The notes beneath the pieces were generated by a model. That model ran no database searches. It was not told where the DNA came from and was given only the letters and a program-made list of their open reading frames with translations. DNA of 64,000 bases, from positions 142,412 through 206,411 of the forward strand of contig JAKFYJ010000004.1 of the NCBI GenBank assembly GCA_021730935.1, written 5' to 3'. Source of the stretch: Elusimicrobiota bacterium. Its GTDB lineage: Bacteria; Elusimicrobiota; Elusimicrobia; 2-02-FULL-39-32. Shown here in pieces: positions 32,866 through 59,523 of the stretch. Numbering within the stretch: the stretch's first letter is position 1; each line of letters opens with the position of its first letter. The translations under genes were made by a program, and so were the position numbers.

Positions 32866-33647
32866 TGCCTGATTTTTTTAAAGATAAAGTCGCGATCGTG
32901 ACGGGGGCTTCCAGCGGGATCGGCCTTTGCACGGCCCGGCTCCTGAGTGAACGGGGAGCGCGCGTCGTGCTGGCGGCCAGGTCCAAAGACAAGCTTGAGA
33001 AACTGGCACAGGAATTGCCCAATTCCATTGCAGTTCCGACGGATGTCACGGATAAAAATTCCGTTTTGAATATGGTTCAGCGCACGCTCGACGCTTTCGG
33101 GCGCATTGACATATTAATCAACAACGCCGGAATCCTCATCTATAAGCCCATTGTTCAATCAACGGACGAAGATCTTCGCCGGGTGATGGAAGTGAATTTC
33201 TTTGGAGCTGTGGCCTGCGCGAATGCGGTCTTGCCCGCGATGGAAAAACAGAAGTCCGGAACCATCGTCAACATCTCCTCGATTGCGGGCCGCATCGGGT
33301 TCCCCAACATCGGATATTATTGCGCGAGCAAGTTTGCTTTCACGGGATTTTCTGAAACTTTTCGGCAGGAAGTGGCGTCTAAAGGCATCATCGTGTCGAC
33401 CGTCAATCCCGGGACGACGGAAACGCCCCTGAATCAGACGATCCTTGATGAGGCCAGGAAAAGGGGCAAGAATATTTTGCCCATCACTCCGGAACGGGTT
33501 GCCCGGGCCATTTTGAATGCGGCGGAAAAGGGCAAAGCTGAAGTTTTTGTTCCCTGGTCCACGCGAGTGCTTCACTGGCTGCATTTTTTTGCGCCGCGTT
33601 TCACAGAGTGGCTGGCCTGGCATTTCCGGTCCGCTGAAAAATATTGA
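32865..33647 (+). CDS. Short-chain dehydrogenase/reductase (SDR)
   Basis: TGASSGIG dinucleotide motif, NNAG, and the catalytic YxxxK (YCASK). Its ATG overlaps the nth TGA by 1 nt. Confidence 0.85.
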   Translation: MPDFFKDKVAIVTGASSGIGLCTARLLSERGARVVLAARSKDKLEKLAQELPNSIAVPTDVTDKNSVLNMVQRTLDAFGRIDILINNAGILIYKPIVQSTDEDLRRVMEVNFFGAVACANAVLPAMEKQKSGTIVNISSIAGRIGFPNIGYYCASKFAFTGFSETFRQEVASKGIIVSTVNPGTTETPLNQTILDEARKRGKNILPITPERVARAILNAAEKGKAEVFVPWSTRVLHWLHFFAPRFTEWLAWHFRSAEKY

Positions 33648-34648
33648 AAGGAGAAAGTATGGACAGCGACATTAAACTCATTCACGAGAAGATACAGAAA
33701 GAAAGCGTTTTCGTTCAGGCTTTGAAAGCGGAAATCGCGAAAGTCATCGTGGGCCAGGACGAACTGATCGACCGCATCCTTGTGGGCCTCTTTTCCGATG
33801 GACACATCCTGCTCGAAGGCGTGCCGGGCTTGGCCAAAACCCTCACCATCAAGACTCTCGCCGGCTGTATCCACACTCAATTTAAGCGCATCCAGTTCAC
33901 GCCTGACCTCCTGCCCGCCGACTTGATCGGGACCATGGTTTTTAGCCCCAAAAATCAGGAATTTGCCGTCAGAAAGGGCCCCATTTTTACTCAGCTTCTG
34001 CTCGCGGACGAAATCAACCGCGCTCCGGCCAAGGTGCAGTCTGCGCTCCTTGAAGCCATGCAGGAAAAGCAGGTGACCATCGGCGAAACTTCCTATCAGC
34101 TGCCGGAACTTTTCCTCGTTCTGGCCACCCAAAACCCGATCGAGCAGGAAGGGACCTATCCTCTGCCTGAAGCGCAGGTGGACCGCTTTATGCTGAAGCT
34201 CAAGGTGACTTATCCGACGAAAAAGGAAGAGTCCGCAATTTTGGACCGCATGACCTCCAAAGAAATGCCCCAGGTGAAAGCGATTATTTCTCCTGATGAT
34301 CTTCTGAAAGCGCGCGGGTTCATAAAAGAAATTTATATGGACGATAAAATCAGAAATTATATTTTGGATTTGGTCGCGGCGACCCGGAATCCCGAAGAAT
34401 TTAAACTGCCGGAACTGAAAAAACTGATCAGTTATGGTGCCTCTCCAAGAGCCACCATTTTCCTCGCCAAGGGCGCCAGGGCTTATGCGTTTCTGCAGGG
34501 CCGGGGATATGTGACGCCGGAAGATGTGAAGGCGATCGGCCCGGACATCTTGAGGCACCGCGTCATCTTGTCGTATGAAGCCGAAGCCGAGGAGAAAAAT
34601 TCCGACGACATCCTGAAGACGCTTTTTAACACCGTCGAAGTTCCGTAA
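33644..34648 (+). CDS. MoxR-family AAA+ ATPase
   Basis: Walker A GVPGLAKT and Walker B LLADEINRA, about 330 aa. First gene of a Bat-like operon. Confidence 0.9.
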   Translation: MKGESMDSDIKLIHEKIQKESVFVQALKAEIAKVIVGQDELIDRILVGLFSDGHILLEGVPGLAKTLTIKTLAGCIHTQFKRIQFTPDLLPADLIGTMVFSPKNQEFAVRKGPIFTQLLLADEINRAPAKVQSALLEAMQEKQVTIGETSYQLPELFLVLATQNPIEQEGTYPLPEAQVDRFMLKLKVTYPTKKEESAILDRMTSKEMPQVKAIISPDDLLKARGFIKEIYMDDKIRNYILDLVAATRNPEEFKLPELKKLISYGASPRATIFLAKGARAYAFLQGRGYVTPEDVKAIGPDILRHRVILSYEAEAEEKNSDDILKTLFNTVEVP

Positions 34649-34660
34649 TATTTTCTTGCG

Positions 34661-35554
34661 ATGAGTTCCGCGCAAACCATTCCTTCTGAAGTCTTCAAAC
34701 AGGTCCGCGCCATAGAAATCCGCACGCGGAAACTGGTGAACGACATTTTCATGGGCCAATATTCCAGCGTGTTCAAGGGCATGGGCATGGAGTTTGCCCA
34801 GGTTCGCGAATATCAGCCGGGGGACGATCCCAAACTGATCGACTGGAATGTGACGGCGCGCGCGGGCAGCATATTCACGAAAGAATTTTTGGAAGAGCGG
34901 GAACTCACCGTCATGGTGATGGTGGACGCGAGCCGGAGCCTATTTTTTGGGAGCAAACGCTCTCTCAAATCCGAAACAGCCGCGGAACTCGCCGCGCTCC
35001 TCGCTCTCTCGGCCATCCGCAACAACGACAAAGTGGGCCTCCTCATCTTCACCGATAAAGTTGAAAAATATGTGCCTCCAAGGAAAGGGAGCGGCACAAT
35101 TTTGCGTCTCGTCCGCGAAATTCTCACCTTCAAACCCGAAGGCAAAGGGACGGACCTGTCATCGGGCCTGGAATTCGCCGCGCGCGTTTTGAAGCGGCGG
35201 TCCGTGTGTTTTTTGATCTCGGATTTTCTCACCGAAAAAGATTATCAGGCGCCTCTGAAAATTCTGGCGCGCAAAAACGATGTCATTGCCGTGCGCGTCT
35301 CCGACGCTCTGGAAAACCAGATTCCTGCTCCCGGACGATATCGGCTGAGGGATCAGGAAACGGGTCAAATGCAGACCTTGAAGGTGAGCGGCGCAGACAT
35401 AAAAAAGATTCATTTCAAGGTGGCGGAGCATTTCGACCAATGGAAAAAATCGATCAACCGAGCGAAGGTGGATGTGATTGAGGTTTTGGCAGGAGAACCT
35501 TACGCGAAACAATTTTTGTCGTTTTTTAGGACGAGGGCGAAACGGTTTCGATGA
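34661..35554 (+). CDS. DUF58-domain protein (MoxR partner, vWA-like)
   Basis: Typical DUF58 N-terminus (EVFKQVRAIEIRTRKLVNDIFMGQYSSVFKGMGMEFAQVREYQPGDD). Confidence 0.8.
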   Translation: MSSAQTIPSEVFKQVRAIEIRTRKLVNDIFMGQYSSVFKGMGMEFAQVREYQPGDDPKLIDWNVTARAGSIFTKEFLEERELTVMVMVDASRSLFFGSKRSLKSETAAELAALLALSAIRNNDKVGLLIFTDKVEKYVPPRKGSGTILRLVREILTFKPEGKGTDLSSGLEFAARVLKRRSVCFLISDFLTEKDYQAPLKILARKNDVIAVRVSDALENQIPAPGRYRLRDQETGQMQTLKVSGADIKKIHFKVAEHFDQWKKSINRAKVDVIEVLAGEPYAKQFLSFFRTRAKRFR

Positions 35555-36414
35555 GCCAGGAAAATTCAATCGCGATATCAGCACAGACAGCGGTCCTGCC
35601 CTCCACGACGGTGGCGGTCGCGGGGTCCGTGCGCGTTCAAGTAAGCGCCTATTCCAAGTCACCGATTGAGATCAGCAGTTTCACAGCGCCCACTCTCGAC
35701 AATGCTCAAATCCTGAAATCCGCCGCGACCAAGAGCGCCGCTTCTCCTCAGGGCGGATATGAAACCACCGTTAATTTCGATGTCATGCCTCTGGCTCTGG
35801 GAGCCCTTGAATTTCCGTCTCTTAAAATCGAATACAAACTTGATAATCAAAAACTCGAATTTTTGTCGCCGCCCGTGAAAATGTCCGTGGTCAATCCTTA
35901 TGAAAGCGGACAGATCCAGGTTCAGCCGAGAGATATTAAAGGCCCCGTCTCCGCCGGCATGAGCCCGTGGGTTCCGGCCTTGATCATTTTGGCCGCAGGC
36001 GCAGTTGCCGCCGCCTATTGGTTTTATCGTAAAAATAAAAAAGAGGGTTCTGTTGTGTCGGAACCTCCCAAAGAGCCGCCCCGGCCGTCACACGAAACGG
36101 CCCTGGAAAAATTGAATGCCGCCATGGAAACATATCGAAAGAATCCCGACAGCAAGGTTTTTTATTCAGAAATTTCATTGATCCTGAGGGACTATTTGGG
36201 CGCCCGATATGGCATGGACGCAATTGAAAAAACCACGGCGGAAATTTTTTACGATATGAAACATCGCGGGATCGAGATGAAATTCTGCATGAGCGCAAGG
36301 GACATTTTGTCGTCCTGCGACCTCGTCAAGTTCGCCAAGTTTTTGCCGTCGGAAAAAGACCTTGAAGCGGATTGGGTGCGCGCCAGACAATTTGTTGAGG
36401 ACACGAAATCATGA
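35551..36414 (+). CDS. Hypothetical single-TM protein of the Bat/MoxR operon
   Basis: One TM helix (VPALIILAAGAVAAAYWFY) and a conserved position between DUF58 and BatA. Stop/start are coupled. Confidence 0.5.
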   Translation: MSQENSIAISAQTAVLPSTTVAVAGSVRVQVSAYSKSPIEISSFTAPTLDNAQILKSAATKSAASPQGGYETTVNFDVMPLALGALEFPSLKIEYKLDNQKLEFLSPPVKMSVVNPYESGQIQVQPRDIKGPVSAGMSPWVPALIILAAGAVAAAYWFYRKNKKEGSVVSEPPKEPPRPSHETALEKLNAAMETYRKNPDSKVFYSEISLILRDYLGARYGMDAIEKTTAEIFYDMKHRGIEMKFCMSARDILSSCDLVKFAKFLPSEKDLEADWVRARQFVEDTKS

Positions 36415-37397
36415 TTTTCGCCAATCCTCTCTGGTTTCTTGTTTTGATTCCTGCCGCGGCGCTCTTTGCTTGGCGGTATTATCGCCTTAAGTCCGGGAAA
36501 GTCGCGATCCCATTTTCTGATCTCAATCTCCTGCAGGGCTGGATGAAAGAGTCGCTGAACGAAGATTATGTTATGGAGGCGCTGAAAGCGGCGAGCGTCG
36601 TGTTTATGATCATCGCTCTTGCCCGTCCGCAAAGCATCAACAAATCCGCTGAGCCGCCCAAGCCTGTCGTCGACATCCTGCTTTGCCTGGACACTTCCAT
36701 CAGCATGGCGGCGATGGATTTTGATCCGGACAACCGTCTTGAAGCGGCCAAGAAATCGGCGGTTGATTTCATAAAGAAAAGGCCTGCGGACAGGATGGGT
36801 CTTGTAGTCTTTGGGGGCTCCGCGCTCCTGCAGTGTCCCCTGACATTGGACCATGAGAGTTTGACGGATTTCATTCAATCGATCGAGCTGAACGCGACGC
36901 AAACCAACGGGACCGCCGTGGGGACCGCAATTGCTCTGGCTTCCAGCCGCCTGGCAGACAGCGAAGCCAAAAGCAAAATCATCATCCTCCTCACCGACGG
37001 ACGGAGCAACGCGGGGAGCATTGATCCCCTGACAGCGGCGCAAGCGGCGAATGATCTCGGCATCAAAATATACACGATCGGTTGCGCCGTTCCGGGCGGA
37101 GGGATTCTGCCGGACTTGCCGGAATGGGGGGTTCGGTATGGTACACGGGTGGAAGATTTGGACGAATCCACTCTGTCTTCTGTTGCGGCTCAAACTCACG
37201 CAAAATATTTTAGAGTGACTTCCGAGAAGAAATTAAAGGAAATTTATACGGAAATTGACCGCCTCGAGAAAACCAAGGTGGAGACGCTTGAAATGACGCG
37301 GGTCGAAGACCGCTATCTGCCTTTTGTAATTATTGCACTGATTCTCTTTGGGGTGTCGATGGGACTGAACGTTTTCGTCTGGAGGACCGCCCCGTGA
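36411..37397 (+). CDS. BatA-like vWA-domain membrane protein
   Basis: N- and C-terminal TM helices flank a vWA domain with a MIDAS motif (DTSISM...LTDGRSN). Confidence 0.8.
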   Translation: MIFANPLWFLVLIPAAALFAWRYYRLKSGKVAIPFSDLNLLQGWMKESLNEDYVMEALKAASVVFMIIALARPQSINKSAEPPKPVVDILLCLDTSISMAAMDFDPDNRLEAAKKSAVDFIKKRPADRMGLVVFGGSALLQCPLTLDHESLTDFIQSIELNATQTNGTAVGTAIALASSRLADSEAKSKIIILLTDGRSNAGSIDPLTAAQAANDLGIKIYTIGCAVPGGGILPDLPEWGVRYGTRVEDLDESTLSSVAAQTHAKYFRVTSEKKLKEIYTEIDRLEKTKVETLEMTRVEDRYLPFVIIALILFGVSMGLNVFVWRTAP

Positions 37398-39019
37398 ACT
37401 TCGCTCATCCTGCTCACTTCGGTTGGTTTGCCTTATTCTTCATTCTTGCCGCGGGGGCCTATCTGTTGAGGCGTTTTCAGAAAGCCAGAATTCAGGAATG
37501 GTTTTCGACGCATGCCATAGAAAAGGTTTTTCCGTTTTCCAGGTGGAGGAGTTTCAGTTTCTGGAAAGGCCTGTGCAGAGTTCTTGCCTTGTTTTTCCTC
37601 GTCCTTGCGGTCACGGGCCCGCGCATCGGTCAGGAAATGAAAACGGTGAAAGTGAGCGGGAGCACGGTGTATATCCTCTTTGACTGTTCCGCCTCCATGC
37701 TCGCGGAAGATCTCAAGCCGAACCGTCTGGAAAATTCCAAGATACTTTTGGGAGGGCTTTTAGAAAAAATGCACGGCAACCGCGTGGGCATCATTGCTTT
37801 CGCAGGGGAACCTTTCGTCTTTTGCCCTCTGACTTTTGATCTCTTCGCCGTTCGACAATTTTTAAGGAGTATAGATCCTCAGATGATCCCAGTCCCCGGA
37901 ACCCACATCGGGTCCGCGATTCGTTTGGCTCTGTCGAAGATGCCTGAAACAGGGTCCCGCGCGATCGTGCTTTTGACCGACGGTGAAGACCATAAAAGCG
38001 ATCCTGAAGGAGCCGTAAAAGAAGCCGAAAGCGCGGGGGTGAGAATTTTTGCCATCGGCATCGGAAAACCCGAAGGGGAACCCATTCCCATCAAAGATGC
38101 ATCAGGAAGTGTCACGGGGTTCAAGAAAAACGCGAAGGGAGAAATCGTGATGAGCAAGCTGGGCGAGAAATTTTTGCTGGATGCGGCGCAAACCACGGGC
38201 GGGGCCTATTTTCGGGCGGAACAATCCGGAGAAGCGATCGACATGGTTTCCGCGAAACTGGACGAATCCGCCAACAGCCCTCTCACGAGAAAGGAAGATT
38301 CTTATAGCGACCGATATCAATGGGTCCTGGCTCTTTCCATATTCCTTTTTCTTTTGGGAGAAACATTGGACGCGTTTGGGCAGAAAATATTATGGAGAAG
38401 GACGGCGGTTTTATACTTGCTGCTGGCGTTTGGGTTGAGCGGAAAATCATATGCCGATTCGTTCCGATCAAAAATTGCCGAGGGAAATAAACTGTATCAC
38501 GTCAACAAATATGAACAGGCTCTGCAGGAATATGAAGCGGCGGCCGCGGTCCGGCCTGACGATCCCCGGGCTTCGTTTAATAAGGGAACGGCGCAATATC
38601 GCCTGAAAGCCTGGGATCAATCCGCGGAAGAACTTCAAAAGAGCTCCATGAGCCGCGACCCCAAAATGCGCGCGAGATCGTTGTATAATCTTGGGAACGT
38701 TCATTTGCAGAGCGGGAAATATGCGGAGGCGGTGAAGTCGTATCAGGAAAGTCTCAGGGTGAATCCGCGCGACGAGGACGCCAAGGAAAATTTGAAACTC
38801 GCGCTCCGCTTCATGAAAAATCCGCCGCCGCAGAATAAAGATCAGAAACAGCAGGACAAAAAGGGGCAGGACAAAAGCAAAGAGCAGAAGGCTCAGGAAG
38901 GCGAAAAGAAGGAAAACGCCAAACGCATGCTCAAGGGCGCCTCCGACGAAGATCAGAACAAGCCCAAGTTTAAGCCGAAGCCCAACGGAAAGAAAAAAGA
39001 GGACGACGAAGACTGGTGA
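37394..39019 (+). CDS. BatB/BatC-like vWA + TPR membrane protein
   Basis: vWA MIDAS (DCSASM...LTDGEDH), then TM helices, TPR repeats (YNLGNVHLQSGKYAEAVKSYQESL), and a K/Q/E-rich low-complexity tail. Confidence 0.8.
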   Translation: MNFAHPAHFGWFALFFILAAGAYLLRRFQKARIQEWFSTHAIEKVFPFSRWRSFSFWKGLCRVLALFFLVLAVTGPRIGQEMKTVKVSGSTVYILFDCSASMLAEDLKPNRLENSKILLGGLLEKMHGNRVGIIAFAGEPFVFCPLTFDLFAVRQFLRSIDPQMIPVPGTHIGSAIRLALSKMPETGSRAIVLLTDGEDHKSDPEGAVKEAESAGVRIFAIGIGKPEGEPIPIKDASGSVTGFKKNAKGEIVMSKLGEKFLLDAAQTTGGAYFRAEQSGEAIDMVSAKLDESANSPLTRKEDSYSDRYQWVLALSIFLFLLGETLDAFGQKILWRRTAVLYLLLAFGLSGKSYADSFRSKIAEGNKLYHVNKYEQALQEYEAAAAVRPDDPRASFNKGTAQYRLKAWDQSAEELQKSSMSRDPKMRARSLYNLGNVHLQSGKYAEAVKSYQESLRVNPRDEDAKENLKLALRFMKNPPPQNKDQKQQDKKGQDKSKEQKAQEGEKKENAKRMLKGASDEDQNKPKFKPKPNGKKKEDDEDW

Positions 39020-41478
39020 TAAAAATAAAGCAGATATTGGTTTCGGCCGCCCTGTTCGCGGGTTTATGCTCCGCGCTTCATGCCGATGTCGTCATTTCCG
39101 TTTCGGCGGACAAAAATAAAATTGATTTGAACGACAACATCCGGCTGAATGTGTCGGTCGAAGGGAGCGGAAATGTTCCGCAACCCCAAATGCCGGACCT
39201 CTCGGCTTTCAATGTTTACTCGTCCGGAAGATCCCAAAACATTTCCTTCATCAACGGCAAGATGTCGTCCTCCATTGTCTATAACTATAACCTCATGCCG
39301 AAAAGCACCGGCAAGTTCACGATCGGCGCGTTTTCTGTGACGGTGGACGGAAAAACGGCGCAAAGCCAGCCCCTTGAGATTGAAGTGGTCCCCGCCGGAT
39401 CCTCGCCGCCGCAATCCTCAAAACCGGCCGGGAGGACGAACGCCCCCGGGGCCTTCGTGAAGCTTTTGGCCAGCCGTTCAAAGGTCTTTCTCAACGAGCA
39501 GGTGATATTGCGATTTAAGTTTTATTTCAGAGTGAACCTTCTCGCCAACCCGCAATATCAGCCGCCTGAGTTTAAAGGGTTTATCGCGGAAGACCTGCCT
39601 CCGAAGAATTTTACGGAAACAGTGAACGGCGTCGGTTACCGCGTCCTGGAAATCCAGACCGCTCTCTTTCCGGCTAAAACAGGGAAGATTCTGATCCCTC
39701 CAGCGCAGATCAATATCGCGGTTCAGGACGTCAGCCAGGCGAGCCAGGACGATGTCTTCGGCATGTTTTTCGGCGGCGGCGCGAGAGAGTATGTTTTGAA
39801 AACGGATCCGGTCGAACTGGATGTGATGCCGCTCCCTTCTGACGGGAAACCCGCGGGATTTTCCGGCGGCGTCGGGGCCTTCAATCTGGCGGCGAGCCTG
39901 GACAAACCCAAGTCCGCCGTGGGGGAGGCGATCACGATGACGGTCACCGTTTCCGGAGAAGGCAACGTCAAGTCCCTGGGCGATCCCGTTTTTCCGGATT
40001 TCCCCGGGTTCCGCAAATTCGACACAGCCAGTTCCTTGAACATCGAGAAGGCAAACGAAAAAGTTCAGGGTTCCAAGGTCTATAAAATCGTCCTCATCCC
40101 TCAGTCATCCGGCAAACAGACTTTGCCTTCCGTCACTTTCACATATTTCAGCCTGGCTGAAAAGAAGTATAAAACTTTGAAATCAGCTCCGATCTCCGTT
40201 GACGTGAGTCCGGGGAGCCCGAGCGACGCGCCGAAATATGTCGGCAACTATAAATCGCCCGACATCCAGATGCTTCAGGAAGAAATCCGCTTTATTAAAC
40301 TGAAAAATAATTCCAAAAAACCTTTCACGTGGATCCATAAAAGCAAATATTTCCTTGCGCTCAACATTTTTTCCGTTGCAATTTTGTGCGCCGCTTTAAT
40401 CTATCGCCTCAGAAACATTCTCTCCGCGCTCAATCCGGAGAAACGCAGGAAATCTCGGGCCCTTCAAAACGCATTGGCGGAACTGAAGCGGGACCGGCCC
40501 ATGGACGCCATGCAGGGATTTTTTGCCGACAAGATGCTGGTTCCTCCGCAGGGCCTCACGCAAAAACAGGCGGAAGACTTTTTGGCCAAATCCAAATTGG
40601 ACGCCGAAACGGTTTCTCAAGCCAAAGCGCTCTGGAACGATCTGGACCTCCTCCATTACGCGCCGTCCCACTTTGAAAAGTCCGGGCAGTCAGAACTCTC
40701 GGAGCGCGTCAAAAATCTCCTCAAAAAAATAGAAAAATCTCTCCCGCTTTTCGCGTGCATCCTCCTCGGCAGCGCGCTCGCGTTCGTTCAGGAGACCCAG
40801 GACCCATTTTCATTGGGAAACCAGTTTTATCAGGAGGGAAAATATTCAGAAGCCGTTGAGCAATATGGGCAATATTTGGCAGTGGTCGGCGAAAATCCGG
40901 TTACGGAATACAATTTGGGCAACGCTTATTTCAAGCAGGGCGCTCATGGCGAAGCGATTCTCCATTGGGCCCGGGCGTTCCGCATGGGCTTGACCGATTC
41001 CGATGTGCGATATAATCTTCAGTTTGCTTCCGTCCGCGCTGGAGATCCGTTTTTCTCGGACATTGCTCCTGTCCGGTGGATTTATATTTTGACTCATTTT
41101 TTCAGCATCAATGTTTTTTCGATTGCTTGGATTCTCTCTCTGTGGTCGGCAGGCCTGTGTTTCTCGTTTATGCTTTTCAAAAAAATAAGTCTGAAAAATG
41201 CCGTGAGCGTTTCTTTGATCTTTATTTTATTTGTTTCAGGAATTTTTATGGCCGGCAGGTTGTATGAAGAAGAATGGAACTGCATGGCCGTCGTCACGGG
41301 ACAGAAAGCGGAAGTCCGATCCGGACCGGGGGCGCAATTTTCCGTCGGGTTCACGGTTCCTGAAGGCCGGAGGGTGTTTTTAATGGAGGAAACTTTTTCG
41401 AAAGACTGGGTCCAGGTGGCTGTCCCGAAGGAAGGGCTCAAGGGCTGGGTTTCGTCTCAAACCGTCAAAAAAATTTGA
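39016..41478 (+). CDS. BatD-like large periplasmic protein with C-terminal TPR, TM helices and SH3-like domain
   Basis: Signal peptide, BatD-type beta-rich repeats, TPR (YNLGNAYFKQGAHGEAILHWARA), three C-terminal TM helices, and a terminal SH3b-like segment (AEVRSGPGAQFSVGFTVPEGRRVFLMEE...WVQV). Confidence 0.6.
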   Translation: MIKIKQILVSAALFAGLCSALHADVVISVSADKNKIDLNDNIRLNVSVEGSGNVPQPQMPDLSAFNVYSSGRSQNISFINGKMSSSIVYNYNLMPKSTGKFTIGAFSVTVDGKTAQSQPLEIEVVPAGSSPPQSSKPAGRTNAPGAFVKLLASRSKVFLNEQVILRFKFYFRVNLLANPQYQPPEFKGFIAEDLPPKNFTETVNGVGYRVLEIQTALFPAKTGKILIPPAQINIAVQDVSQASQDDVFGMFFGGGAREYVLKTDPVELDVMPLPSDGKPAGFSGGVGAFNLAASLDKPKSAVGEAITMTVTVSGEGNVKSLGDPVFPDFPGFRKFDTASSLNIEKANEKVQGSKVYKIVLIPQSSGKQTLPSVTFTYFSLAEKKYKTLKSAPISVDVSPGSPSDAPKYVGNYKSPDIQMLQEEIRFIKLKNNSKKPFTWIHKSKYFLALNIFSVAILCAALIYRLRNILSALNPEKRRKSRALQNALAELKRDRPMDAMQGFFADKMLVPPQGLTQKQAEDFLAKSKLDAETVSQAKALWNDLDLLHYAPSHFEKSGQSELSERVKNLLKKIEKSLPLFACILLGSALAFVQETQDPFSLGNQFYQEGKYSEAVEQYGQYLAVVGENPVTEYNLGNAYFKQGAHGEAILHWARAFRMGLTDSDVRYNLQFASVRAGDPFFSDIAPVRWIYILTHFFSINVFSIAWILSLWSAGLCFSFMLFKKISLKNAVSVSLIFILFVSGIFMAGRLYEEEWNCMAVVTGQKAEVRSGPGAQFSVGFTVPEGRRVFLMEETFSKDWVQVAVPKEGLKGWVSSQTVKKI

Positions 41479-41512
41479 TCTATGAGACGGGATTTTGATA
41501 TATTGAGTTTTG

Positions 41513-41773
41513 ATGTCGAATCTAAATACAGCCAACGGATTGCAGGATTTAACTGCCGTATTAAAGGACGTTGAAAAAAAAGTCCTCGAAAACCGTTCCA
41601 AATATGAAGATTCCCAGAAGGCCGTGAAAGATTTTCGCCGCATTTTTGACCAGGCCTCTTCCCGCATGAACAAAGCCATTTTCAACGACAGGTCCGAAGA
41701 GGACATTTATCACGAAACCCTCCACACCGTTTCCAGCCTCATAGAAATTCTGGCGCGAGTCAAGAAAAAATAG
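41513..41773 (+). CDS. Small hypothetical protein (86 aa)
   Basis: ATG at 41513, no homology recognised. Charged, helical-looking sequence. Confidence 0.35.
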   Translation: MSNLNTANGLQDLTAVLKDVEKKVLENRSKYEDSQKAVKDFRRIFDQASSRMNKAIFNDRSEEDIYHETLHTVSSLIEILARVKKK

Positions 41774-41777
41774 TGTA

Positions 41778-42052
41778 GGACTCATCTTGTAAATAGGCGG
41801 TACATTTGGCGGCACGATTTTGGAGCGAAACAAGGAACGAGGACGAAGGCGTACCCATTGAGGTACGTCGAGGACGAGTGACGCAGTTGCAGCCCATAAG
41901 CGTGCCGCTCTTCTTGTTTCCGGGGTGCCCATCTTTGCGCGCTTTCGTCGTTGCTCATCGCTCACGTGCCTCTGGCACGCATCGCTCTTCGCGCCTAGAA
42001 ATCGCATCAAATCTGGGCTCCCAAATGTACCGCCTATTTACAAGATGAGTCC
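41778..42052. repeat. 275-bp element bounded by perfect 32-bp terminal inverted repeats
   Basis: GGACTCATCTTGTAAATAGGCGGTACATTTGG at 41778-41809. Its exact reverse complement is at 42021-42052. The interior is GC-rich and locally palindromic, non-coding. Confidence 0.7.
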
Positions 42053-43148
42053 TTGCCCAAGTTGCGGCCAACCCCTCAAAGACGCGGGCAAACACTGCAC
42101 GCGCTGCGGCATTTCGATCACGCCGAGGAGCCTTGAACTCGCCCAGGTCATTCTGAACTTGGGCTGGATCGCGCGCAGGTCGCTCGGCGGATTTTTGGCG
42201 GGCGGCGTGGGCTGGATTTTGGCAACCGCCATTTCAAGGACGGTTTATTTCACCGCCACCGGAACTCCTGAATTTTCGGCGATCCTCGATTTTTTCCCAG
42301 GCAAAGTCCCCGGGGCGACTGCGATCGCGGGCGCTTTCGTGGGCACCGTCGGAGGAATGATCGAAGGGTCCGCCTATAAATGTTTTCTCGGAGGATTCCT
42401 TGGGGCGGTGGGCGGATTTTTGGGCGGCGTCAGTTATCCGGCCTTTGAAAGTCTTTTCGCCGGCAGTAAATATGCCTATTCCTTTTCGATGGCGGGTTCC
42501 TGGGCGATCGCTTCGGGATTGATCGGACTCACAAGCGGATTGCTGGAAGGCACCAAACGAAAAATTTCCATGGGGATTTTGGGGGGCGCGGCGGGCGGCG
42601 CGCTCGGCGGCGGCGTGGGCTCTCAAATTTACGGCGCGATCTTCATGAGCGTCAGTTCGCTTCAGTCGATGTCCTGGTCCGTCGGGCGCCTCATTGAGCT
42701 GGTGAGCGGCGGGATTGTGGGGATCCATGTCTGGTTTTTCATCGGGATCGCGGAAAAATTTTATATCTTCAGGCGGCGCAAAATCGCGGCGGGGATCAAA
42801 AAAATCTGCGACCACTGCTCGGCTGAAAATGAGCTTTCGGCGTGGTATTGCGCTTCCTGCGGGAACGCGCTTCAGGTAGCGGCGTCCAGCGGCCAGATCC
42901 GCGTCACGCCTTATCGCGGGCTCGAGAGAGTTTCGGACGCGTTTCAATATTTGTCCTGGCTTTCCGCCACGGTCGGGGTTGTGACGACGGGGGTACTTTT
43001 TGTAAGCTTTATAAAGGAAAACTTTCTGTTCGCCGTTTTCGGTTCGCTTCTCCTGGCGCTGTTGCTGTATATGGTCTCAATCCTGTTTCGCGCGATCGCG
43101 GAAGCCATTCGCATCGGAATGAAATTGACGGAAACAAATAAATCGTGA
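42045..43148 (+). CDS. Polytopic membrane protein with two zinc-ribbon motifs and glycine-zipper TM helices
   Basis: N-terminal CPSCGQ...CTRCG, multiple Gly-rich TM segments (GGFLGAVGGFLGG), and an internal CDHCSAEN...CASCGN. The start ATG (42045) lies inside the right inverted repeat. Confidence 0.55.
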   Translation: MSPCPSCGQPLKDAGKHCTRCGISITPRSLELAQVILNLGWIARRSLGGFLAGGVGWILATAISRTVYFTATGTPEFSAILDFFPGKVPGATAIAGAFVGTVGGMIEGSAYKCFLGGFLGAVGGFLGGVSYPAFESLFAGSKYAYSFSMAGSWAIASGLIGLTSGLLEGTKRKISMGILGGAAGGALGGGVGSQIYGAIFMSVSSLQSMSWSVGRLIELVSGGIVGIHVWFFIGIAEKFYIFRRRKIAAGIKKICDHCSAENELSAWYCASCGNALQVAASSGQIRVTPYRGLERVSDAFQYLSWLSATVGVVTTGVLFVSFIKENFLFAVFGSLLLALLLYMVSILFRAIAEAIRIGMKLTETNKS

Positions 43149-43639
43149 GAATCACAAAACTTCACCTTCTCCTCTTTTTCCTGCTCGCCGGCATCGGGGT
43201 CTATGCCGCCTATTTTTTGCACGAGAAACCCGCTGAAATAAAACCGGTTATGGATGCCGTCCCCGCGCCGGAAACGGCTTCAATGCCCGCGGCGCCTCAA
43301 ACGGCCGCGCCTTCCGCTCCTGCCGCGTCAGCGCCTGTCCAAACCAAAGTGAGTTCCGATCCGTCCAAGCCTGTGGTTTATGTCGTAAAGGGCGGGGAAA
43401 CTCTCTGGAAGATCGCCAAGATGCCGGAACATTTCGGCAAGGGCCACCGGTGGTATGACATCTGGAAAGCCAATGAAAACACCCTTCAGGATTTTGATCA
43501 CCTTGTCCGCGGGCAGGAACTTGTGATTCCTCTCGACAAGCCGGACGGATACAAATGGCCGAAGACCGATGACGCGCGCAAAGCCAAAATTTTAGCTCAG
43601 GTCCGAGTCAAGGCTCAAAAGATTCCCGCAACGAATTAA
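43145..43639 (+). CDS. LysM-domain protein
   Basis: N-terminal TM, Pro/Ala-rich linker, and a LysM motif (YVVKGGETLWKIAK...WKAN...L..GQELVIP). Confidence 0.75.
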   Translation: MRITKLHLLLFFLLAGIGVYAAYFLHEKPAEIKPVMDAVPAPETASMPAAPQTAAPSAPAASAPVQTKVSSDPSKPVVYVVKGGETLWKIAKMPEHFGKGHRWYDIWKANENTLQDFDHLVRGQELVIPLDKPDGYKWPKTDDARKAKILAQVRVKAQKIPATN

Positions 43640-53888: not shown

Positions 53889-53908
53889 TCGAAAATAAAA
53901 ATTGCCGG

Positions 53909-53936
53909 AATGTTCTTTTTTATAAAAAAGAACATT
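53909..53936. terminator. AT-rich perfect palindrome, possible bidirectional terminator/hairpin
   Basis: AATGTTCTTTTTTAT|ATAAAAAAGAACATT, between the small Zn-ribbon gene and argJ. Carries a U-tract on both strands, but the stem is GC-poor. Confidence 0.3.
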
Positions 53937-53958
53937 TCGACAATTTTTATCTGATTTT

Positions 53959-58401: not shown

Positions 58402-58974
58402 TTGCCGATGAAAAACTTTAAATCAGGGATTCAAAAAGGGCTGGGCATTCTGCTAGTACTTTTTCTTGCAGCATTATGCTTTGTGGCATGGTGCTCATAT
58501 TGCCCAAAACTTCACTATCTCAATGCTTATCTTCCTAAAGACAATATTCAAATATCCTTAAGTGATGTTCAGATAAAAACACTAAATCAACTTATATCAA
58601 AGGGGATTGTTATTTCCGCAAGCGACCTATATAACGACACTATTGCTTTTTACAGTACACTTATCACCTGGCTCATTGGTATTTTAGGGATCAGCGGAAT
58701 CATTGGCTTTATATATGTGAGGAGTAAATCGCGTGAAGAAGCTGAGCACGAAGCTGAAAAAGCAGTTGATAACTATTTTGCCAAACAATCAGTGCATGAC
58801 ATGTTGGACAATAAGATTAAATCCGAGGTAGATAATCAACTTGAGGATGTGAAGAAAGATCTTGAAAGTTTGGAAGATATACAAGGAATAAAAGATAGCA
58901 TTCAAAAAATTGAAGAGAAAATTGAAGTTCTTGAAACAGATTCGGATAGGGTTATTCCTAAGGAGCCTGATTAA
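58402..58974 (+). CDS. Hypothetical 2-TM protein with C-terminal coiled coil (first gene of the low-GC operon)
   Basis: TM helices (GLGILLVLFLAALCFVAW; LITWLIGILGISGIIGFIYV) followed by an E/K-rich coiled coil. About 35-38% GC. Confidence 0.5.
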   Translation: MPMKNFKSGIQKGLGILLVLFLAALCFVAWCSYCPKLHYLNAYLPKDNIQISLSDVQIKTLNQLISKGIVISASDLYNDTIAFYSTLITWLIGILGISGIIGFIYVRSKSREEAEHEAEKAVDNYFAKQSVHDMLDNKIKSEVDNQLEDVKKDLESLEDIQGIKDSIQKIEEKIEVLETDSDRVIPKEPD

Positions 58975-59523
58975 ATGGCTGTAATTAAGAAGCAGTCCAC
59001 ACTCCTGCTTTCATATCCTGAAACGCTAGAAGAAATTACTCAGCAGAAGCACAGTAATATTTTTCAACAAGCCGAAAAATGGGGTATTAAAACGTATCCA
59101 TTTGATATTGAAAGTTTTATTGAGAGATGCGGAATAAGAATTGTTCGTGAAGAGATGGGCTATGATCTCTCAGGGTACATTGAGAAAAGGCATAAAAATT
59201 GGTTTATCGGATTAAATAAGTATCAATCTGTTCGACGACAAAGGTTTACGTTGGCGCATGAGTTTGTTCATTTTCTTTTTGATAAAAATGAGATTGAAAA
59301 TAGGCGTCATGACGACCATATTTTGTTGCGTAGCGAAGAAAATAATCCTAGGGAAAAACGTGCAAATGAATTTGCTGCTGAGTTGCTTATGCCAAAAACA
59401 ATTTTTAAAGAACAGGTGGATGGAGGGTTGCGCGATATTTCTGAGCTCGCACAGAAATTTGATGTTTCAATGGCCGCAGTTCGTTACAGAGCATATAAGT
59501 TAGGGTATATCAAAAATTACTAA
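58975..59523 (+). CDS. ImmA/IrrE-family zinc metallopeptidase (DUF955/COG2856-like)
   Basis: HEXXH (HEFVH) followed by EaNeFAAELLMP, about 180 aa. Start is 1 nt after the upstream stop. Confidence 0.75.
   Translation: MAVIKKQSTLLLSYPETLEEITQQKHSNIFQQAEKWGIKTYPFDIESFIERCGIRIVREEMGYDLSGYIEKRHKNWFIGLNKYQSVRRQRFTLAHEFVHFLFDKNEIENRRHDDHILLRSEENNPREKRANEFAAELLMPKTIFKEQVDGGLRDISELAQKFDVSMAAVRYRAYKLGYIKNY

Follow-up and report, generated by a model that had tools for sequence, protein, structure and literature searches.

We found that a 64,000-nucleotide (nt) stretch of an Elusimicrobiota genome (contig JAKFYJ010000004.1; the whole stretch is called the window below) encodes, at positions 42045–43148 of the + strand, a 367-amino-acid membrane protein with two zinc ribbons and eight helices, which we label ZnR-TM. 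ZnR-TM is a real, conserved inner-membrane protein and is found only in Elusimicrobiota. Comparison of its sequence with those of distant relatives shows it to be a new arrangement of domains around an uncharacterised, widespread membrane core; the arrangement itself is confined to one phylum. The evidence comes from the domain structure of the protein, from its homologues and more distant relatives, and from the genes and the inserted element that surround it.

Domain structure and membrane topology of ZnR-TM

The ZnR-TM frame is open from the ATG at 42045 to the stop codon at 43146–43148, giving 367 residues, 14.4% of which are glycine. All the motifs that an earlier note on this DNA had quoted were present in the translation. 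The gene and the parts of its product are listed here, with transmembrane (TM) helices numbered from the N-terminus.

42045–43148, + strand: ZnR-TM gene (open reading frame (ORF) and translation, 27 homologues, alignment, AlphaFold2 model)
42045–42119, + strand: N-terminal zinc ribbon, residues 1–25 (Pfam Zn_ribbon_3, CxxC...CxxC conservation, model)
42123–42767, + strand: six-helix glycine-rich core, residues 27–241 (model, hydropathy, hhalign against the FHA-linked set described below)
42309–42455, + strand: hairpin A, TM2–TM3, residues 89–137, with the turn E107-x-S-x-x-K112 (hhalign, entropy)
42474–42650, + strand: hairpin B, TM4–TM5, residues 144–202, with the turn E168-G-T-K-R-K173 (hhalign, alignment, model)
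42792–42884, + strand: second zinc ribbon, residues 250–280, with W267 and Y268 invariant (Pfam DZR, invariant cysteines)
42915–43142, + strand: C-terminal two-helix hairpin, residues 291–366 (model; helices 291–323 and 327–366)

Eight of the nine cysteines of ZnR-TM fall into four CxxC pairs. The first ribbon reads CPSCGQ...CTRCG (C4, C7, C18 and C21) and the second CDHCSAEN...CASCGN (C255, C258, C269 and C272); each thus has the two CxxC knuckles of a zinc ribbon, and these are kept in the homologues. When the protein was compared with the Pfam models, DZR scored marginally above its cut-off on the whole sequence (27.7 bits against 27.3, best stretch 255–277), Zn_ribbon_3 matched residues 3–23 below its cut-off (E 5.7e-4), and the remaining ribbon models also scored under theirs. 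Both ribbons were modelled by AlphaFold2 as short strands (residues 1–25 and about 244–280), the first with a predicted local distance difference test score (pLDDT) of about 62, and both are predicted to bind zinc. The two CxxC knuckles of each ribbon are shared with the Pfam families DZR (PF12773), Zn_Ribbon_1 (PF13240) and Zn_ribbon_3 (PF13248), but these are generic modules of ~25 residues that occur in hundreds of architectures, account for less than 15% of ZnR-TM and are silent on its membrane part. An N-terminal cytoplasmic CxxC...CxxC ribbon before the first membrane helix is also found in staphylococcal TcaA (NCBIfam NF053815), the model of which aligned with residues 1–28 only (E 0.15); TcaA, however, is a single-pass protein with a large extracellular domain, whereas ZnR-TM has eight helices.

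The AlphaFold2 model, calculated on the family alignment, had a mean pLDDT of 86.3 and a predicted template modelling score (pTM) of 0.84. It placed helices at residues 27–68, 89–107, 110–137, 144–168, 171–202, 211–241, 291–323 and 327–366, and hydropathy agreed. The earlier note had counted about six glycine-rich TM segments. Six glycine-rich helices were indeed found (residues 27–241), but two further helices that are not rich in glycine follow the second ribbon (residues 291–366), and the total in both model and hydropathy is eight. Runs of GxxxG or GxxxGxxxG were read from the sequence at residues 96–104, 116–127, 161–165 and 177–192; residues 115–127 are GGFLGAVGGFLGG and residues 180–192 are GAAGGALGGGVGS. 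The profiles of hairpins A and B, built from sub-alignments, matched each other over 42 columns (hhalign 96.9%, E 1.8e-10), and the two hairpins are internal duplicates. Two of the helix-helix turns, E107-G-S-A-Y-K112 and E168-G-T-K-R-K173, are very tight.

Positively charged residues are clustered at RR44-45, KRK171-173 and RRRK243-246. Under the positive-inside rule these clusters would place both ribbons and the two tight turns in the cytoplasm. The relatives described below carry an FHA domain at the position of the second ribbon, which agrees with this topology, and the earlier note's placement of the second ribbon in the cytoplasm is supported by both observations. Searches with the ZnR-TM model gave no significant match among solved structures beyond generic helical hairpins, and no fold relative was detected among viral structures.

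The ZnR-TM family and the shared glycine-rich core

A word-indexed search of 5.8 billion proteins yielded 27 relatives with 33–67% identity to ZnR-TM. The four cysteines of the second ribbon (C255, C258, C269 and C272) were invariant across all 27, and the N-terminal CxxC...CxxC was present in every full-length homologue. Other invariant positions in the alignment include R65, E107, K112, W153, E168, W211, E218, W230, E237, K238, R244, W267 and Y268. Column entropy was lowest in the cytoplasmic turn of hairpin A (0.51 bits), lay at about 1.0–1.3 bits in the helices and the second ribbon, and reached 1.8–2.2 bits in the three periplasmic loops, the most variable part of the protein. This pattern points to the intramembrane and cytoplasmic face, and not the periplasmic one, as the surface under selection.

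The family is evidently small, since an exhaustive search with its profile, over 1.84 billion cluster representatives, returned only 19 matches with E below 1e-30. All 17 loci drawn from one-genome-per-species data belonged to Elusimicrobiota or Endomicrobiales. ZnR-TM is 58% identical to its orthologue in one of these (L001), and the neighbouring genes of the two loci are 44% (BatD) to 78% (MoxR) identical, a picture consistent with ordinary vertical descent under purifying selection. A foreign origin of the gene was considered and rejected, as its divergence is like that of its neighbours; its GC content (0.57 against 0.52 for the window) can be attributed to glycine and alanine codons.

Searches of Pfam and NCBIfam with ZnR-TM gave nothing besides the zinc ribbons, and PADLOC gave zero matches. 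The only matches obtained with PHROGs were weak (E >= 7e-4), lay mostly over the ribbons and concerned families of unknown function, none of them a lysis or holin family. The sole match in a profile search of the PDB was the zinc ribbon of eL40 (E 0.004). No significant sequence or fold match to a transporter, sensor, holin or defence family was obtained, and full-text searches of the literature yielded no description of the family. These results agree with the earlier note, which could not name a family for the protein and had singled out two findings as telling against its description, a confident match to a known transporter or sensor family and a lack of conservation of the cysteine pairs in orthologues; neither was observed. 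The note had not recognised the two additional C-terminal helices, the duplicated hairpin, the kinship of the core with FHA-linked membrane proteins or the closely linked LysM gene. Two family members, P0022 and P0023, are publicly annotated as 'MFS family permease' and 'ribosomal protein L40E'. Both names look like annotation artefacts, and the second most likely arose because the ribbon resembles that of eL40.

The exhaustive search also showed which parts of ZnR-TM occur elsewhere. We detected 58 distant proteins that match the ZnR-TM profile at positions about 40–240. A C-terminal FHA or Yop-YscD_cpl domain was found in 41 of them, zinc ribbons in 5 and a vWA domain in 2. The ZnR-TM alignment matched that of the FHA-linked set over 200 columns (hhalign 99.4%, E 2e-21), a comparison that is partly circular, as the set had been picked by the ZnR-TM profile itself; the motifs nevertheless align in register. 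Common to both groups are G..G..EG......K..G..GG..GG and W...G..IG......K..GG..GG..GG, and in both the last core helix ends with E....(W/Y)(L/I). When the core alone was profiled from the FHA-linked proteins, 654 proteins matched at E <= 1e-5, and FHA is present in most of those listed. Where they are named, the name is 'FHA domain-containing protein', 'hypothetical protein' or a label for an FHA or type III secretion system (T3SS) domain; Armatimonadota and Anaerolineales are the sources of the named ones, and one Acidobacteriota member is also named. Among the other weak matches to the ZnR-TM profile were many multi-ribbon proteins that aligned through their ribbons alone.

The FHA-linked proteins (from Armatimonadota, Anaerolineales, Acidobacteriota and other groups; for example MEN6404152.1 and MGE5417186.1) resemble ZnR-TM in having the glycine-rich core with the duplicated hairpin and a cytoplasmic binding domain directly after the last core helix. 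They differ in what this domain is: one or two FHA domains, rarely vWA, in the relatives, and a ribbon followed by two helices in ZnR-TM, in which Pfam found no FHA or Yop-YscD_cpl domain and a zinc ribbon at that position. Most of them also lack the N-terminal ribbon of ZnR-TM. All are uncharacterised, and the likeness therefore gives ZnR-TM no function. Standalone proteins of ~120 amino acids (P0052, P0057, P0062, P0068 and P0086) matched profile positions 252–364; they consist of one zinc ribbon and two membrane helices, and the second ribbon with the last two helices thus also exists as a separate module. One of them, P0052, has weak sub-threshold similarity to DUF4282.

Genomic neighbourhood and the palindromic insertion

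The gene order in the window is Bat operon, small ORF, inserted element, ZnR-TM gene and LysM gene.

33644–41478, + strand: Bat-type operon encoding MoxR ATPase, DUF58, DUF4381-like, BatA, BatB+TPR and BatD+TPR+SH3 proteins (Pfam)
41510–41773, + strand: small cytoplasmic protein of 86–87 amino acids (conserved ORF 5' of ZnR-TM, same orientation)
41777–42053, no strand assigned: 277-nt palindromic insertion with 33-nt perfect terminal inverted repeats
43145–43639, + strand: membrane-anchored LysM protein (Pfam LysM, E 7.8e-6; its GTG start and the ZnR-TM stop share 4 nt, GTGA)

The LysM gene lies directly 3' of ZnR-TM in all close orthologue loci (L001/L013, L002, L003, L006/L007/L012, L008, L014 and L023), either overlapping the ZnR-TM gene or separated from it by at most about 45 nt. 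All these LysM partners begin with MRITKLH, or a sequence close to it, ahead of a hydrophobic anchor, and Pfam detected no catalytic (lytic) domain in the LysM neighbour. The MRITKLH sequence is conserved in the window (43145–43165) and in L001, L003, L008 and L014, although the two genes overlap by only 4 nt; this cytoplasmic stub might be a contact or an insertion signal. The small ORF precedes ZnR-TM in L001/L013, L002, L003, L008, L014 and L017, and the window copy is 49–59% identical to the correspondingly placed ORFs of L001 and L003. In L008 its stop codon overlaps the ZnR-TM start (ATGA). The protein has 86–96 amino acids across loci (L001:7722-7985, L003:7667-7957 and L008:910-1176) and carries the motif KDFRRxFDQxSSxxNQAIFN; no relative of the 86–87-amino-acid protein was found in Pfam or the PDB.

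The Bat operon ends 567 nt 5' of the ZnR-TM start codon and has the same orientation. Two of its genes are fused, the BatB+TPR product being BatC-like and the BatD+TPR+SH3 product BatE-like. Bat genes were also found upstream of ZnR-TM in L001/L013, L008, L014, L017 and the distant L010, and L020 has a MoxR gene at a distance of 2 kb. They were not found in L003 and L006, where an SDR gene is upstream instead, nor in most of the clade B and C loci that had 10-kb flanks. Around ZnR-TM the genes of the window are of housekeeping type (Bat operon, LysM, PGI and VanZ).

Different neighbours were observed in other clades. A class-A beta-lactamase/S11-like gene occurs together with a CarboxypepD_reg-like protein gene, with the full block in L009, L025, L026 and L027, and a beta-lactamase-like gene lies near the ZnR-TM relative in L022. 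An M23 peptidase gene adjoins the relative in L019, and IspA/YciB adjoin it in L018, overlapping its start. The order in L010 (4848–8898) is kdsA, a gene for an 86-amino-acid zinc-ribbon membrane protein, ZnR-TM, kdsC, lptC and lptA; this member sits inside a lipopolysaccharide synthesis and transport cluster. The cell envelope is the recurring theme of the neighbours, and no partner is universal.

Three further observations were made outside these neighbourhoods. Two genes 3' of the clade B member in L004 (9843–17047) there is a giant ORF, the called product of which has 6607 amino acids and runs off the locus. Within positions 58402–59523 of the window, an ORF of 190 amino acids with a hydrophobic N-terminus, an acidic, charge-rich tail and no family match precedes a Peptidase_M78 (IrrE/ImmA-like) ORF (58975–59523, Pfam 1.2e-25); the pair may be a mobile-element remnant or a toxin-antitoxin-like pair. 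An AT-rich palindrome of 32 nt (94% complementary) lies at 53895–53950.

The start of ZnR-TM lies within an inverted repeat, as the earlier note had stated: the ATG at 42045 and the first three codons (M-S-P) are in the right arm of the 277-nt element. The arms (41777–41828 and 42002–42053) have 52 nt each with 85% complementarity and are separated by 173 nt; the outermost 33 nt of each pair perfectly and enclose 211 nt. The element is predicted to fold as one hairpin (-142.5 kcal/mol, z = -10.3), and its alignment with its own reverse complement scored 176, compared with -8 +/- 18 for shuffled sequences. A longer ORF of 407 amino acids, starting at GTG 41925, was rejected, since its additional 40 residues are encoded by the inserted element and nothing in the homologues corresponds to them; because the latter begin with M-x-C-P-S-C, we took the ATG at 42045 as the start.

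The element was not found in the orthologous loci that we examined upstream of the gene (L001, L003 and L008), where the spacer between the small ORF and ZnR-TM is 15 nt, 43 nt and an overlap, respectively (range 0–43 nt). Since these loci lack it and the homologues read M-[IT]-C-P-S-C, it is an insertion particular to this lineage that has taken the place of the native start. Rfam gave no match in the element even at E <= 10. No obvious direct repeat was seen at its ends as a target-site duplication, no second copy was found in the 64-kb window, and the 22-mers of the arms had no exact match in public genome and metagenome collections, which apparently lack the source genome. The element shares with miniature inverted-repeat transposable elements (MITEs) and foldback elements its terminal inverted repeats, short length, non-coding character, position in an intergenic spacer and presence/absence polymorphism; it differs in being a single copy in the window, with no clear target-site duplication and no transposase found. 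A foldback or MITE-like insertion is the description that suits it best.

The earlier note had raised the possibility that expression of the gene is switchable. Such an explanation would make ZnR-TM phase-variable, with the element acting as an invertible promoter that toggles both ZnR-TM and the LysM gene. Perfect 33-nt repeats around roughly 210 nt at a start codon do give the element the gross anatomy of invertible promoters, in which inverted repeats flank a short segment beside the start of a gene. Since the whole 277 nt form an imperfect palindrome, inversion would hardly change the element, and no sigma-70-like promoter was predicted inside it. Searches of the 64-kb window by tblastn with Hin, XerD and FimB sequences, a crude test, found no Hin-, XerD- or FimB-like recombinase; the single weak match (E 0.01) lies outside any ORF. 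Together with the absence of an orthologous counterpart and of any second copy or variant in the window or the public collections, this makes a switch highly improbable, and the earlier suggestion was not upheld. In read-through transcripts the start codon would be buried in the 33-bp perfect stem, and translation may drop or become uncoupled. The insertion thus probably weakens or uncouples translation of ZnR-TM rather than switching it.

Possible roles of ZnR-TM

Our preferred reading, which we put forward tentatively and would not call probable, is that ZnR-TM is a membrane scaffold or signal coupler of the cell envelope. The protein consists of three modules, namely the N-terminal ribbon, the six-helix glycine-rich core, and the second ribbon with the two-helix hairpin. 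The core arose by duplication of a helical hairpin, with tight cytoplasmic turns that carry invariant Glu and Lys, and it is the same module that is fused to a cytoplasmic FHA domain in several hundred other bacterial proteins. Catalytic signatures are absent from ZnR-TM, and the protein is taken to be non-enzymatic, with its glycine-rich helices packing as a compact intramembrane bundle. FHA domains bind phosphothreonine; the ribbons would replace them as cytoplasmic protein-docking sites, and the docked partner would possibly be the 87-amino-acid protein encoded upstream. The bundle would then link this cytoplasmic contact to envelope partners, above all to the LysM protein encoded directly downstream.

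Several points weigh against this reading. The anatomy, the pattern of conservation, the homology of the core, the modular build and the gene linkage are shown, while the envelope role and every contact of ZnR-TM with a partner are what we infer. In a fusion model of ZnR-TM with residues 1–37 of the LysM protein (pTM 0.69), the position of the anchor had low confidence (pLDDT 35–53 over the anchor); there was no alignment depth for the anchor, and the model speaks neither for nor against a contact. The linkage to the LysM and small-protein genes is limited to the closest clade (at least 55% identity), and the neighbours differ in other clades; synteny within one phylum may be inherited rather than functional. 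The neighbourhoods of three FHA-linked relatives that we inspected had nothing in common. The invariant acidic residues E107, E168, E218 and E237, in or near the membrane, would also suit an ion pathway. Finally, 'scaffold or coupler' is argued from absent catalytic features, and the wider superfamily has no characterised member.

The acidic residues lead to the main alternative, a regulated glycine-zipper channel, in which the glycine-rich helices would line a homo-oligomeric conduit for ions or small solutes, or assemble into one, with gating by the ribbons (by FHA in the relatives). The transmembrane glycine zipper is a concept for membrane motifs, and GxxxGxxxG is repeated on four helices of ZnR-TM. 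The four invariant Glu lie at or inside the membrane boundary, including E218 in TM6, conservation peaks inside the membrane, the regulatory FHA domains joined to this core in relatives are in keeping with a gated effector, and two relatives have weak Pfam Gly-zipper matches. ZnR-TM itself, however, has no Gly-zipper, holin or channel family match (PF13488, PF13441 and PF05433 gave none at E <= 1) and no likeness to solved channels beyond the generic helical hairpins. Its GxxxGxxxG motifs on paired helices recall Gly-zipper_Omp (PF13488) and Gly-zipper_YMGG (PF13441), but they belong to an eight-helix single-chain bundle and not to an oligomerising peptide of one or two helices. Since the monomer model is a confident, compact and closed bundle (pTM as given above), the glycines can be explained by helix packing within a single chain. 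A phage-type holin found no support. Holins typically have fewer than 150 amino acids and 1–4 helices, and they are encoded in phage lysis cassettes beside an endolysin. ZnR-TM shares with them a membrane part rich in small residues and an adjoining peptidoglycan-related gene; it differs in its 367 residues and 8 helices, its lack of a holin PHROG and of a viral fold, and its chromosomal locus, with housekeeping synteny, vertical inheritance, no phage context and no lysis cassette, the LysM neighbour having no catalytic domain. The earlier note had drawn its comparison with channel-forming or holin-like proteins solely from GxxxG patterns, and we could not sustain it; a channel of any kind appears unlikely.

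The upstream operon suggests another explanation, in which ZnR-TM would be an accessory subunit of Bat, the MoxR-vWA 'aerotolerance' system, and its Cys4 ribbons oxidation-sensitive switches that report to the Bat complex, possibly sensing redox state or zinc. Consistent with this, a complete Bat operon stands 567 nt upstream in the same orientation, Bat genes recur before the gene in the loci named above (with MoxR 2 kb away in L020), and in two distant relatives a vWA domain is joined to the core. Redox-switch zinc ribbons are moreover an established class, known for example from Hsp33, RsrA and the mycobacterial Ruc protein (for Ruc, PMC7448276). The link to Bat is nonetheless missing in L003, L006 and most clade B and C loci, and where it is present it may be synteny inherited within one phylum. 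ZnR-TM has no redox protein or motif specifically linked to it, and DZR-type ribbons are very common and mostly structural. We consider a Bat subunit very unlikely. A broader proposal would make the glycine-rich six-helix core a new and widespread class of regulated intramembrane effector, set from the cytoplasm and acting as a channel or an envelope-stress transducer. Its state would be set by binding of phosphothreonine in the FHA versions and, in Elusimicrobiota, by the ribbons' zinc or redox state; the Elusimicrobiota version would be tied to peptidoglycan by its LysM partner, and perhaps also to the neighbouring Bat aerotolerance system. This proposal seems to us quite unlikely as well.

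If the scaffold or coupler reading is true, ZnR-TM offers a handle on a membrane module of several hundred bacterial proteins or more. Nothing that we saw points to an exotic mechanism, and long-standing open questions are left untouched by ZnR-TM. The proteins that carry the core owe their annotation to the soluble part alone, FHA or zinc ribbon, and the membrane part is unstudied. The Elusimicrobiota version is a natural domain swap in which a ribbon and two helices replace FHA, and this swap, together with the tightly linked gene for a peptidoglycan-binding partner, could guide experiments on the core. The main value of ZnR-TM is as an entry point to the FHA-linked core proteins and in the correction of misleading automatic names.

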